Assembly (NCBI RefSeq): GCF_001945605.1 | Contig: NZ_MPKA01000139.1 | Location: forward strand, 32,265-64,264 | Direction: 5' to 3' | DNA from: Dubosiella newyorkensis | GTDB taxonomy: Bacteria > Bacillota_I > Bacilli_A > Erysipelotrichales > Erysipelotrichaceae | DNA length: 32,000 nt | Shown here: positions 3,601 through 6,729 of the stretch, piece after piece | How positions within the stretch are numbered: the stretch's first letter is position 1 | How the letters are laid out: every line of letters begins with the position of its first letter | Made by a program: the position numbers and the translations under genes | The notes under the pieces: generated by a model | Databases searched by the model: none | The model's input: only the letters and a program-made list of their open reading frames with translations | Told to the model about the DNA's origin: nothing

Positions 3601-3706
3601 TATACCCTATGCATGAGAGGTTGTTTTTATTCCTAAGACGTAGCTTTTCATTCTGTCTAATATTTGTTACTCTAATAATAAACAAAAATTAGAAAGGGCT
3701 TAAAAT

Positions 3707-4417
3707 ATGAAAATATTAATCTGTGATAACAATCCTGATGATATTCATCATCTATCCCATTTACTTAACGAGTATTGCGAGTATAGACAACTTGTGATTC
3801 AAGACATAAAGATTTGTCATCATTCAAATGAAGTATTCCGTTCAATTCAGGATTGTGATCTCTTATTTCTGGATGTTGAATTAGATGACGAAAACGGAAT
3901 TGATATAGGGATGCAGATCAAAACAATGAATTGTCGCATTAGGATCATTATCACATCTGCTTTTCAGGATTATCTAATTGCCGGATATAAAATCAACGCT
4001 TGTCGTTATTTACTTAAGCCGATAGAAAAAATTGAATTTTTTATCGAAATGGATTCGATCATGAATGATTATTTTAAAAATCAGCAGGGATTTTATGAAA
4101 GAACAATTCAGCCAGGAAAGATTTTTTATCATCAGATTCTTTTTATTGAAGCATATAATCGAAAAACACAGATCACATTAGAAAACGGAAAATCAGGTAT
4201 CGTGAAGCATTCATTATCCGAGTGGATCGAAATACTAAAAGAACAGCCTTTTGATCAATCCCATAAGTCTGTTGTTGTCAATTTCAAAGCAATCCAAACA
4301 ATTGGTAAACAGGACATTTATTTACACAATGGACAAACCGTTCCGGTTTCGCGCCATTATCGAAAAAGCTTTTTGCAGAACTATATCAACTATTTACAAT
4401 GCGAGGATTACGAATGA
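3707..4417 (+). CDS. LytTR/AlgR-family response regulator (AgrA/ComE-like)
   Basis: The receiver domain has LLFLDVEL (phospho-acceptor Asp), IIITSAF and YLLKP. The acidic pocket reads CDNN rather than DD/DE. The C-terminal LytTR domain reads FIEAYNRKTQITLENGKSGIVKHSLSEWIEIL...SHKSVVVNFKAIQTI...VPVSRHYRKSF. The RBS is AGAAAGGG. Confidence 0.9.
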   Translation: MKILICDNNPDDIHHLSHLLNEYCEYRQLVIQDIKICHHSNEVFRSIQDCDLLFLDVELDDENGIDIGMQIKTMNCRIRIIITSAFQDYLIAGYKINACRYLLKPIEKIEFFIEMDSIMNDYFKNQQGFYERTIQPGKIFYHQILFIEAYNRKTQITLENGKSGIVKHSLSEWIEILKEQPFDQSHKSVVVNFKAIQTIGKQDIYLHNGQTVPVSRHYRKSFLQNYINYLQCEDYE

Positions 4418-5652
4418 TATTTTTATTTTTGTTCAACACTATTTATCTAGTCATAGCTTTTTATATAGGAAAAGAAATTATATCCGCAAGCATTTCTATA
4501 AAAAAGAACAGATTGTTTCTTATAGGGTTGTGGTTATTCTTGAATTTGGGAAATATTCCTATGTTTAGCTCCTGGAACGAAATCTTGGTTTTTTTTGCTT
4601 CGATTGCCTTATACCGCTTTCTGTTTAAACTTCCATGGTCAAAAGTTGTTCCTATTGCTTTTTGCTTTTTTTCAATCGCAAGTATTACAAAATATATTGG
4701 TGGATTATTATCTATATTCGAGATGTCTTTTAATGCACAAAACGAGGTATATACGAATGTATATTTTTTGACGCTCGCTTTGGCGATTCTTACTCTTTGG
4801 GGTTTTATAAAAATACTGGTCCATACTTTCCAGTTGTTTGATCAAAAAGTGCTTCCTTCTTATAGCTGGATTTTTATATTTCTTCCACTCTCTATTTTTG
4901 CTTTATTTTTAAACGCAGAAGATTATTTCAAAGTACTGGAATCACAACGCATAGTTATCGCACTGTTTCTCATTTTTGTCGTGTCCAATTTCATCTTGTC
5001 CTTTTTGCACTCTAAACTTACATCTGTAATGGAAATTGAAACCGAACTTGGAATTCAAAAGGAAAAAGAAAAACAGTTACTAAATCAAATAGAATTTTTA
5101 AATCAGCAACATAAATTAAACATGTCATTTGTTCATGAACTTTTACAAAAAGAGAATAAAATTGTCTCTTTAATAAAAGAAGGGAATGAACGCGAAGCAA
5201 TATCTACACTAGAATCCTTGGCACAAAATACATTTCAGGAATTTAATGGAATTCTTACCGAATCAAACGTTTTCAATGCGATCATTACGCAATTCCATCC
5301 TCGAATTCATCAGGCAGGATTTCAATTAAGAACGACAATTTCGATCAATGATTTTGAATTTATGAATTTATCGGAACAATATGATTTTTTTTATCATTTG
5401 ATTGATAATCTCCTTCATTGCGCAGAAAAACGAATTACTAAAACAGATCAATCAATTATTATCACTTGTAAACGCAACAAATCTTTTCGTAAAATTGAAT
5501 GCTTCATTCCGTTATCCACTCAAAACTTCGATTGTGATTTTGATGATAATTTTGCTTCTAAATATCATTTAAAAATACAGCATCAAAAACTGGAAGAGTA
5601 TAAAAAAGAAAAAATAGAATTGTTATTGAGCGATTTACAACCTGTTAAGTAA
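4414..5652 (+). CDS. AgrC/HPK10-like polytopic membrane sensor protein with an apparently degenerate ATPase domain
   Basis: ATG 4414 forms an ATGA overlap with the regulator stop and follows a GAGGA RBS. Six or seven predicted TM helices are followed by a coiled linker. The H-box-like segment is MSFVHELLQKENKIVSLIKEGNEREAISTLESL and the N-box-like segment is FFYHLIDNLLHCAEK. No DxGxG or GxGxGL motifs are visible in the last ~60 aa. Confidence 0.8.
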   Translation: MIFLFLFNTIYLVIAFYIGKEIISASISIKKNRLFLIGLWLFLNLGNIPMFSSWNEILVFFASIALYRFLFKLPWSKVVPIAFCFFSIASITKYIGGLLSIFEMSFNAQNEVYTNVYFLTLALAILTLWGFIKILVHTFQLFDQKVLPSYSWIFIFLPLSIFALFLNAEDYFKVLESQRIVIALFLIFVVSNFILSFLHSKLTSVMEIETELGIQKEKEKQLLNQIEFLNQQHKLNMSFVHELLQKENKIVSLIKEGNEREAISTLESLAQNTFQEFNGILTESNVFNAIITQFHPRIHQAGFQLRTTISINDFEFMNLSEQYDFFYHLIDNLLHCAEKRITKTDQSIIITCKRNKSFRKIECFIPLSTQNFDCDFDDNFASKYHLKIQHQKLEEYKKEKIELLLSDLQPVK

Positions 5653-5706
5653 AATAAGTACCTGTTGTTCCTGATTGCTGGATATAAATAAATAGTCATT
5701 TATAAT
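5639..5706 (+). promoter_or_regulatory. Direct repeats ACCTGTT (x2, 20-bp period) plus a TATAAT -10: candidate LytTR-dependent promoter
   Basis: aACCTGTTAAG (5639-5649) and tACCTGTTGTT (5659-5669) resemble the AgrA half-site ACAGTTAAG. TATAAT lies at 5701-5706 with no good -35, as expected for an activator-dependent promoter. Confidence 0.3.
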
Positions 5707-5788
5707 AGATTTAACAAATAATTATTTGGATAACAGAAAATCTCTCATACCGGTTTCAGAGATCCATAGTTAGAAAAGGAAAGCTATT

Positions 5789-6315
5789 ATGAATACTATA
5801 AAAAAATAAGTCAAATAATCATAACTACTATTTTTTGTGTTTCTCTTAGTTCCGAACATATTTTTGCAACCGAAAGGGTAGATCCTGAAGTTTCAGATAA
5901 TCCGGAAACTTCCACAAACGCAGAACCATATAATGAAGACACGAGAATGTATTCATTGGATGAATATATGAAAACATTTTCTCAGGATATGTCTTCCAAT
6001 GAAATAATCTTGCCTGACTATTCATCTTTGGATTTAGGTCTCGCACCATTGAGTTATTTACGCTATACTTCCTATATCTATGATGCGAGCGGCAATCAAC
6101 TTGGTACAGTTACACTCGATGCAGAAACCGCAATAATTGGTGGAAGACCACAATTCGTATATGATAAGTGTTACTTAGGTCATCCATCTGCTTATAACGG
6201 ATGGCCTTGCGTAGACTCAAGTCTATCTTTCTCGGGAGACCGAATTGTTGTTTATGCTACATTCTCAAATGGATATTTTCAACAAAGCGGTTCAGCTGTA
6301 TTTTATCCTCAATAA
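5789..6315 (+). pseudogene. Secreted protein of unknown function (~175 aa when repaired), frameshifted in an A7 tract inside the signal peptide
   Basis: ATG 5789 follows an AAAAGGA RBS and stops after 6 codons. The frame of ORF 5947-6315 is open back to 5770 and, with one more A (or two fewer) in A7 5800-5806, reads MNTIKKISQIIITTIFCVSLSSEHIFA/TERVDPEV..., a Sec-type signal peptide. There is no ATG, GTG or TTG in that frame before 5947. Confidence 0.55.
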
Positions 6316-6351
6316 ATCGTACTTCTCTAATAAATAAGATAAATTTAATCA

Positions 6352-6513
6352 ATGAAAACTAAAAAGCATATTTTTGCTATTCTTATTTTCATCCTGATTA
6401 TCGTGGGAATCTTAGCAGGTTATTTTCGTTCCTTTCAAAATACCCAAAGTATAGATGATCAGAAAATGTATACCCTTGATGAGTATCAGGAAAAATTTGA
6501 CCATAGCAAATGA
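6352..6513 (+). CDS. Small exported or membrane peptide (53 aa), hypothetical
   Basis: The ORF reads MKTKKHIFAILIFILIIVGILAGYFRSFQNTQSIDDQKMYTLDEYQEKFDHSK: an N-terminal signal or TM segment and a hydrophilic tail carrying the same MYxLDEYxxxF motif as the preceding gene. A terminator follows immediately. No clear RBS. Confidence 0.35.
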   Translation: MKTKKHIFAILIFILIIVGILAGYFRSFQNTQSIDDQKMYTLDEYQEKFDHSK

Positions 6514-6527
6514 AAAGATCTTCAAAA

Positions 6528-6556
6528 GAATCGGCCTATCCCCGGTCGATTTTTTA
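6528..6556 (+). terminator. Rho-independent terminator closing the LytTR block
   Basis: ATCGGCC (6530-6536) pairs with GGTCGAT (6544-6550) with one G-U. The loop is 7 nt and a T6 run follows. Confidence 0.6.
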
Positions 6557-6585: not shown

Positions 6586-6729
6586 TTGAACACCACTGCT
6601 CTTGTATTTACGGAGATTCCTTTTTCAAAAAGAAAAGCAGGCAGTCTGATCAATTCTTCCAAAGGCAAGATTTATATCCACAATCACGCGGATCTTGAAC
6701 GGGTCAGAATGATCCTGTCCTGTTTGTGA
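6586..6729 (+). CDS. Possible 47-aa ORF behind a strong RBS, hypothetical (possibly a truncated remnant)
   Basis: AGGAGGTGG at 6567-6575 is followed by TTG 6586. The ORF reads MNTTALVFTEIPFSKRKAGSLINSSKGKIYIHNHADLERVRMILSCL. It overlaps antisense ORF fragments, so it is uncertain which strand, if either, is coding. Confidence 0.25.
   Translation: MNTTALVFTEIPFSKRKAGSLINSSKGKIYIHNHADLERVRMILSCL

Follow-up and report, generated by a model that had tools for sequence, protein, structure and literature searches.

A short module shared by a secreted beta-domain protein and the putatively tethered peptide encoded beside it in Dubosiella newyorkensis

Introduction

Why would two exported products encoded side by side, one a secreted protein and the other a peptide of 53 amino acids (aa), carry what looks like the same short motif, and what might the smaller of them do? 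The question is raised by a 32,000-nucleotide (nt) stretch of the Dubosiella newyorkensis genome (assembly GCF_001945605.1, contig NZ_MPKA01000139.1, positions 32,265 to 64,264 of the forward strand), which we refer to as the window. Within it, a gene for a Sec-exported beta-domain protein (5789–6315; 175 aa if read through) is followed by the gene for a putative membrane-tethered peptide (6352–6513), and the pair lies downstream of genes for a LytTR response regulator and a sensor-kinase-like protein; these genes, with their promoter-like and terminator-like sites, are on the plus strand. An earlier note on this DNA suggested that the motif could be a mature signal, or part of a Phr-type pro-peptide, directed at the neighbouring sensor, and offered as an alternative that the small product could be an immunity or partner protein that mimics part of the secreted one. 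It is the alternative that fits the evidence best, and we tentatively infer that the peptide is a tethered partner, an immunity or decoy factor that mimics a docking helix of the secreted protein.

Results

Two neighbouring products share a motif that marks a secreted family

The two motif copies, MYSLDEYMKTF towards the N-terminus of the secreted protein (5947–5979) and MYTLDEYQEKF in the 53-aa product (6466–6498), lie where the earlier note had placed them. They are identical at 7 of 11 residues, not at the eight that had been counted, and at 8 of 15 when the flanks are included; at the DNA level 9 of the 33 positions differ (24/33 identical), which bears out the codon-level divergence already remarked on. 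The best ungapped 11-mer alignment of the two products scores 44 with BLOSUM62, against 20.0 ± 3.2 for 5000 shuffles of the peptide, none of which reached 44 (maximum 38). Pairwise BLASTP between the products gives an E-value of 4e-5, and a six-frame translation of the whole 2.25-Mb genome contains Y[ST]LDEY at exactly two sites, both of them here. Given the shuffle scores, the BLASTP result and this six-frame uniqueness, the match is beyond chance. The motif regions of the two genes probably share ancestry, through partial duplication or conversion, because the motif DNA of the corresponding peptide gene in another genome of the genus (G088) matches that of the window's secreted gene (77% over 52 nt, E-value 5e-6). 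The common layout that had been described, with both motifs following an N-terminal hydrophobic segment and a hydrophilic spacer, is present, but the frame of the secreted protein is broken in the window.

A third genomic copy of the motif was considered at the end of a protein with three transmembrane (TM) segments on another contig (C92), which terminates in WYPLDEYNDRFDHDH. We treat it as a loose or chance resemblance, since the orthologues in three other genus genomes keep only a generic acidic and aromatic tail. The protein itself (L002, 1474–1926, minus strand) is small and conserved, and its acidic and aromatic C-terminal tail reads WYPLDEYNDRFDHDH in this genome only, being reduced to DEF[ND]..YWD in the orthologues. 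An inner loop contains KDFDHSKK, an echo of the FDHSK end of the 53-aa peptide.

The motif is a general property of the closer relatives of the secreted protein. All close homologues (38–90% identity) retain [MF][YV]SLDE[YF]xxx[FW], and SLDE is invariant in the family alignment, in which few blocks apart from the C-terminal domain are so fixed. When 1.84 billion representative proteins were searched with a profile, the beta family was found in 55 representative clusters. Among the 58 sequences in hand at that search, about 24 contain the module, in one to four copies each, with the consensus [DEN][FM]LSLDEYNxKYSN[GE] (more loosely ΦLSLDEYNxxYSN, where Φ is hydrophobic). One tandem array reads RFFSISEFNEKYSNE-DFLSLDEFNEKYANE-GFLSLDEFNEKYANE-DFLSLEEFNKKYSSG, another locus (L030) has four copies, and near-identical proteins vary by whole 25-residue units, with two, three or four of them. 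Whatever its copy number, the module sits between flexible linkers, N-terminal to the Sec-exported beta domain; more distant beta-domain members are without it. The earlier note had held that a motif not conserved in homologous loci would count against its significance, and the search found it conserved. The module is the hallmark of an undescribed secreted-protein family.

The C-terminal domain (6058–6312), with the core GGRPQFVYDxCYLG, is predicted by AlphaFold2 to be all-beta, with six strands and a predicted local distance difference test (pLDDT) score of about 90. By established helix-capping rules, the motif reads as the start of a helix, with a Ser or Thr at the N-cap, a Glu three residues on that would complete a capping box, and an aromatic staple. 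In the AlphaFold2 model of the secreted protein, built from a six-sequence alignment, M-Y-S forms a short strand and L-D-E-Y-M-K-T-F a helix (pLDDT 88), flanked by linkers below 50. DSSP assigns a strand only where it is hydrogen-bonded to another, and since all other strands here are those of the C-terminal domain, the motif may dock in cis on the protein's own beta domain, judging from pLDDT and the DSSP strand assignment alone.

The secreted protein has no Pfam or NCBIfam match above cut-off. A fold search of the PDB with the beta domain (Foldseek) returns no match, the best hit having an E-value of 0.075 and a TM-score of at most 0.25, a sequence-profile search of the PDB finds no relative (best E-value 0.18), and nothing was found in the plasmid and phage collections searched. 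The family is also rare in the genomes sampled, occurring in 2 of 301 genomes of the bacterial family and 1 of 399 of the phylum, and the GTDB representatives yield a single relative, Erysipelotrichaceae bacterium OPF54. Neither the motif nor the two families, that of the beta domain and that of the tethered peptides, has been described before.

The genes of beta-protein relatives lie in varied company, among it genes for LytTR regulators with GHKL kinases, a LanM lanthipeptide synthetase, an ABC exporter, and a relaxase with MobC. At a further locus (L006, 3451–5032, and L029), three consecutive genes for small secreted proteins adjoin BlaR1/BlaI-like genes; a 120-aa motif-less beta protein comes first, followed by two full-length motif-bearing paralogues (MYSLDEFAQIF and MVSLDEFDDSF), and a group II intron reverse transcriptase gene lies downstream of the trio. 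In a motif-less clade (L049–L058), a conserved 105-aa double zinc-ribbon protein is encoded directly downstream, with no tethered motif peptide (for example at L052, 3750–4067, and L057, 3740–4057). Upstream at L057 are genes for an ABC exporter and a 220-aa protein with a Tat signal.

A candidate tethered peptide with a conserved tail

The 53-aa product consists of MKTKKH, a TM segment (6370–6426), a 13-residue linker and a motif-bearing tail. Read by eye, the hydrophobic segment, of about 19 residues and with no good −3/−1 site, looks like a membrane anchor and not a cleavable signal. The tail, DDQKMYTLDEYQEKFDHSK (6454–6510), contains the second motif copy. An identical copy of the whole protein is found on 455 contigs. 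Relative to the sister species represented by OPF54, the 19 tail codons differ by five synonymous and no non-synonymous changes, and the 34 N-terminal codons by five synonymous and 11 non-synonymous ones, so that KMY[ST]LDEYQEKFDH is the same in the window as in the sister-species orthologues. The five synonymous and zero non-synonymous changes indicate that selection acts on the tail as protein.

Peptides ending in KMY[ST]LDEY[QK][EK]KF[DS]H are encoded in all four representative genus genomes, on anchors of more than one kind. The window, G088 and both copies in OPF54 have a TM helix, and the peptide of G006 / D. muris has an LSAC lipobox; the homologues carry the source names Dubosiella muris and uncultured Dubosiella sp. 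The lipoboxes carried by peptide homologues are LSAC, LTGC, TAAC and VYGC, and a genome of another genus (G008) encodes a lipoprotein that ends in EDQMLNLDEYNSVWESKEE. Two further clades place a small lipoprotein just downstream of a beta gene. At the loci of one (P0002; L021–L023), LTGC is followed by SPKEEMLSLDEYQETYGSDSSDD and the tail is EEMLSLDEYQETYGSDSSDD; at the locus of the other (P0003; L028), TAAC is followed by QKAANEEEELIPISEYNDRFHHTEDKDSD and the tail is EELIPISEYNDRFHH. A small motif peptide beside a beta gene thus recurs in three diverged clades, with a TM anchor in the window and OPF54 and with LTGC and TAAC lipoboxes in the other two. From these sequences, what stays constant appears to be a tether, a short linker and the module, with the type of anchor interchangeable. 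Because the paired loci have differing neighbours (an XRE-type gene, a transposase), the pairing links the peptide gene with the beta gene and not with the kinase. The 53-aa peptide has no Pfam or NCBIfam match above cut-off.

A gene under selection behind a broken frame

In the window, the secreted gene has a good ribosome-binding site, AAAGGAAAG (5776–5784), ahead of an ATG at 5789, but translation from there gives MNTIKK and then meets a TAA at 5807. The cause is a run of seven A residues (A7, 5800–5806), six codons after the ATG, which puts the start out of frame; the remainder of the secreted-protein frame (5806–6315) is the −1 frame behind the run, and the longest ordinary open reading frame (ORF) begins at an ATG at 5947 that is the Met of the motif itself. 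The run is a perfect A_AAA_AAA slippery heptamer with the TAA directly after it. This A7 state is found in the window, in all eight conspecific assemblies, which fall into two haplogroups that differ by about 1.2%, and in the sister-species isolate OPF54. An intact state with eight A residues (A8) is found in two sister-species metagenome contigs (L019 and L027), where the orthologue (P0001) starts MNIVKKISQ; L027 and the A7 isolate OPF54 are 100% identical in their regulator and kinase DNA.

The ORF behind the run evolves as coding sequence. Between the window and the sister species, its ratio of non-synonymous to synonymous substitution rates (dN/dS) is 0.078 overall, at a dS of 0.60. From the motif to the end it is 0.028 (32.5 synonymous versus 4.5 non-synonymous changes), and over the 47 codons from the A run to the motif it is 0.20; the other two frames of the same DNA, taken as controls, give 1.07 and 2.6. 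The three single-nucleotide polymorphisms within the species all fall at third codon positions. The secreted gene is therefore under strong purifying selection despite its A7, A8 and deleted variants, and since the ORF behind A7 evolves in this way, it would appear to be expressed in the −1 frame at least part of the time.

Three routes to such expression are candidates. We favour reversible switching between A7 and A8 because A8 contigs exist and because one of them (L027) shares identical regulator and kinase DNA with an A7 isolate. Slippage by −1 on the A_AAA_AAA heptamer before the TAA and transcriptional slippage at the A7 run are the other candidates; no stimulatory RNA hairpin for −1 frameshifting was found downstream of the run (z +1.2).

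Peptides retained where the beta gene is lost

The beta gene is present in two of the four genus genomes and the peptide in all four. G088 (99% complete) and G006 (93% complete) have the peptide, with no kinase orthologue and no beta gene, and OPF54 has a second peptide copy 260 kb from its two-component system. In the sister species, three kinds of locus exist whose regulator and kinase DNA is 99.6–100% identical: A7 in the isolate OPF54, intact A8 in L019 and L027, and a clean deletion in L007–L010. In the last of these, the beta gene is precisely removed and the peptide gene stands directly behind the same promoter, ribosome-binding site and ATGAA, leaving a conserved three-gene unit of regulator, kinase and peptide.

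We considered and rejected the idea that a relic of the beta gene precedes the G088 peptide gene, where an ORF ends in IGGKPQFI and a stop codon; the blastn E-value of 0.09 falls short of significance, and most of the resemblance can be put down to the RuvC-I motif of an RRXRR-type gene. The ORF in question (L065, 1247–1462), truncated and of the RRXRR/RuvC-I type, lies directly upstream of the orphan peptide gene, and its last residues, TLGVDAGSKRIGGKPQFI, resemble the beta core TLDAETAIIGGRPQF, as a relic or by coincidence.

Predicted transcription unit and genomic setting

The secreted and peptide genes lie on the same strand, 36 bp apart, between one promoter-like site and one terminator, and the order of secreted gene then peptide gene is the same in L019, L024, L027 and L021–L023. 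The promoter-like site (5679–5706) has a weak −35 element, TGGATA, a 16-nt spacer and a consensus −10 element, TATAAT (5701–5706). Upstream of it, and overlapping the stop codon of the kinase gene, is a LytTR-box-like direct repeat, ACCTGTT-N13-ACCTGTT, with a 20-bp period (5640–5666); it is the single match in the window, against 0.04 expected, precedes a promoter that has no good −35 element, and is kept in L007 and L024. A hairpin followed by a T run, resembling an intrinsic terminator (6530–6555), closes the two-gene unit, and equivalent hairpins follow the peptide gene in L019, L024 and G088. With a LytTR-box repeat and promoter-like site upstream and a terminator after the peptide gene, the two genes are predicted to form one unit driven from the LytTR box. 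In the sister species, the whole 137-bp intergenic region shows about 90% conservation. Within the 5′ untranslated region of the secreted gene lies an inverted repeat, ATCTCTCATACC/GGTTTCAGAGAT (5740–5763), kept in altered form in the sister species and no more stable in its fold than shuffled sequences (z 0.7).

The regulator (3707–4417) combines a receiver with a LytTR domain (Pfam LytTR 3e-16, Response_reg 5.6e-11) and has a dN/dS of 0.09 relative to the sister species; no LytTR-box repeats were found upstream of its gene. Its stop codon is overlapped by the start of the gene for the polytopic sensor-kinase-like protein (4414–5652, 412 aa), which is 88% identical to its sister-species orthologue, with a dN/dS of 0.128. 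The kinase-like protein matched no Pfam or NCBIfam model, GHKL included, whereas the kinase of a relative's locus (L052) does. In two of the eight conspecific assemblies the kinase gene is frameshifted, by T8 to T9 at 4589–4596 (L011) and by an extra A near 5174 in AATAAAAG (L013).

An AT-rich block (3601–6000) spans the regulator, kinase and secreted genes, with a GC content of 0.29–0.33 against 0.40–0.45 in the flanks and 0.424 in the genome. Just downstream, a TTG-started ORF of 47 codons (6586–6729, containing SSKGKIYIHNHADLERV) resembles the small orf1 of OPF54 (L024, 1525–1713, minus strand), which adjoins an IS66 orf2-like gene upstream of the regulator. The ORF in the window is probably an IS66-family remnant at the edge of the AT-rich island. 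Because of the low-GC block and the orf1-like remnant, the module of regulator, kinase, secreted protein and peptide looks like an accessory island.

Discussion

A proposed partner that mimics the secreted protein

The peptide is plausibly a partner of the secreted protein, since the two genes are adjacent in three clades, the products have a common module, and docking of that module in cis is predicted. Its genetics resemble those of an immunity factor because a variable effector combined with a retained small membrane protein, orphans included, is the pattern of bacteriocin-immunity loci. Two features expected of such loci are seen here: a small membrane protein is encoded directly downstream of an exported effector, and the effector is variable or lost, with the small gene orphaned (A7, A8 and deleted states in one species). 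The company kept by relatives of the beta protein (a LanM synthetase, an ABC exporter, LytTR systems and mobilisation genes) is of the kind expected around competition loci, and the low GC content of the module in the window also speaks for this reading. We infer from this, as our leading though still tentative explanation, the immunity or decoy role named at the outset.

In the mechanism that we propose, the module of the secreted protein would dock on the protein's own beta domain as a pro-, auto-inhibitory or tethering element, and the 53-aa peptide would present the same module at the surface of the producer, where it could engage the same partner in trans. The peptide would then most likely give immunity to, or act as a decoy for, a bacteriocin-like effector under LytTR control, with retention of that effector at the surface a less likely version. 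The effector gene, intact with A8, out of frame with A7 or deleted altogether, would be dispensable and open to switching, and the protective peptide would be kept, also as orphan copies.

Several observations weigh against this proposal. The Pfam, NCBIfam and PDB searches turned up no similarity to any known family of toxins, bacteriocins or immunity proteins. No small motif peptide lies within 3.5 kb of the beta gene in the multi-copy human-gut clades, and the motif-less clade beside LytTR systems has the zinc-ribbon protein downstream instead of a peptide. When docking in trans was modelled as a single chain with AlphaFold2, in which the beta domain, stripped of its own motif, was joined to the peptide through the natural in-frame spacer (TAA read as G), the tail helix had a pLDDT of only 60–64 and formed no strand, values that speak clearly neither for nor against such docking. 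The orphan peptides could also have a function that has nothing to do with the beta protein.

Other readings of the pair

A signalling reading, in which the 53-aa product would be exported and cleaved so that its tail serves as an autoinducer for the adjacent polytopic kinase, with the motif of the secreted protein as a second source of agonist or antagonist, has points in its favour. The peptide gene follows a regulator–kinase pair directly and has a LytTR-box promoter ahead of it, as is usual for an autoinduced pheromone gene; L007–L010 keep just regulator, kinase and peptide; and the helical tail, at about 28 residues, has the size of unmodified pheromones of the PlnA or BlpC type. Like Phr and other RRNPP pro-peptides, the product is small, with an N-terminal hydrophobic export segment and a functional C-terminus. 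Unlike them, its homologues are held by lipid or TM anchors, and those with lipoboxes in several genomes would be tethered lipoproteins; no RRNPP receptor adjoins it, nor is a TPR or RRNPP protein found in the window locus or L007–L018, a LytTR regulator and a membrane kinase being encoded alongside instead; and its 15–19-residue helix module also occurs inside larger secreted proteins. The peptide has no GG leader, and neither the window locus nor the orthologous loci contain a gene for a C39/ABC exporter or AgrB. G088 and G006 keep the peptide without a kinase orthologue, and the second copy in OPF54 is unlinked to one. The motif, for its part, is spread over a broad secreted family at loci with different regulators or none: it is conserved in members far from any two-component system, paired loci adjoin the XRE-type gene and transposase, L006 has BlaR/BlaI, and the members that do adjoin a LytTR regulator and GHKL kinase (L049–L054) are without it. 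Pheromones also usually diversify, yet this tail is invariant across species. A signalling role has thus become distinctly improbable. A small membrane regulator like MgrB or SafA, acting as a feedback modulator that touches the outer loops of the sensor, would likewise explain why a peptide of about 50 residues that crosses the membrane once and has a conserved outer tail is encoded beside a two-component system and apparently under its control. There is no sequence relation to either protein, however, the peptide persists in G088 and G006, which have no kinase orthologue, and as the unlinked copy in OPF54, and the same motif in a broad secreted family would be left unexplained, which makes this very unlikely.

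The adjacency, tethering and predicted cis docking that speak for an immunity or decoy partner would serve equally for a surface anchor, in which the peptide holds the secreted protein on the producer by motif–domain or motif–motif binding, for non-covalent display or as a primer of head-to-tail assembly, with no protective role; tandem motif copies could support multivalent assembly. Such an anchor would be useless without its cargo, yet the peptide is intact in genomes and strains that have no beta gene, and the deletion in L007–L010 placed it precisely under the promoter. We consider a surface anchor improbable. That the 53-aa ORF is a non-functional remnant, a truncated 5′ duplicate of the secreted gene whose motif is a relic, could account for the same layout, the homology of the motif regions at the DNA level and the frameshift in the neighbouring gene. 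It sits badly with a tail that has five synonymous and no non-synonymous differences, with an identical protein on 455 contigs, with peptides in four of four genus genomes on different anchors, with a terminator behind the 53-aa ORF, and with independent analogues in three clades; this explanation is already largely refuted by conservation, and we give it hardly any credence.

Relation to known systems

An immunity or decoy partner would place the locus near the LytTR-regulated bacteriocin-immunity operons of Gram-positive bacteria, such as the pln, blp, spp and cbn loci. As in those operons, a LytTR regulator and polytopic kinase adjoin a promoter with paired direct repeats; the promoter drives an exported protein and then at once a small membrane protein; the effector is variable or lost and the small gene retained, orphans included; and the whole lies in an AT-rich accessory island. 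In contrast to them, the putative effector here is a Sec-dependent beta protein of roughly 150 residues that is related to no known bacteriocin, and both a GG-leader peptide and a C39 ABC exporter are missing. To our knowledge, a motif shared with the effector is not a known feature of immunity proteins. The operon logic nevertheless resembles that of LytTR-controlled bacteriocin-immunity loci.

Prolysostaphin offers a second comparison. It is a secreted bacteriolysin with a tandem-repeat propeptide, and its repeat region lowers activity until it is removed. The secreted family has the same order of a Sec signal, short tandem repeats and then a functional domain, but the repeats are unrelated in sequence, and lysostaphin is an M23 peptidase whose immunity is enzymatic (Lif/Epr) and involves no motif mimic.

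A more speculative extension, which we regard as unlikely but worth stating, is immunity by self-mimicry. A bacteriocin-like protein would be silenced by its own docking helix, in one to four copies, and a stand-alone tethered copy with about 25–30 exposed residues would recapture or block the activated protein at the cell surface, protecting producers and 'cheater' cells alike; the A7/A8 tract would switch the toxin gene, and the decoy would spread as orphans.

Significance

The module, for which we name the peptide sequences DDQKMYTLDEYQEKFDHSK and TRMYSLDEYMKTFSQD, is short enough for direct peptide-binding and structural work. The locus is also a test case for gene switching, as one species has intact, homopolymer-frameshifted and deleted states of a gene under strong purifying selection, and it would suit a study of phase variation or recoding. 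Taken together with its relatives, it would define a new secreted-protein family and a short extracellular module, ΦLSLDEYNxxYSN, that is absent from Pfam, NCBIfam and the PDB. Dubosiella-like Erysipelotrichaceae are abundant in rodent guts, where factors of strain-level competition are almost unknown. If the role that we propose for the peptide is true, the pair would represent a new principle of self-protection or tethering, by means of a minimal anchored copy of the effector's own docking helix.

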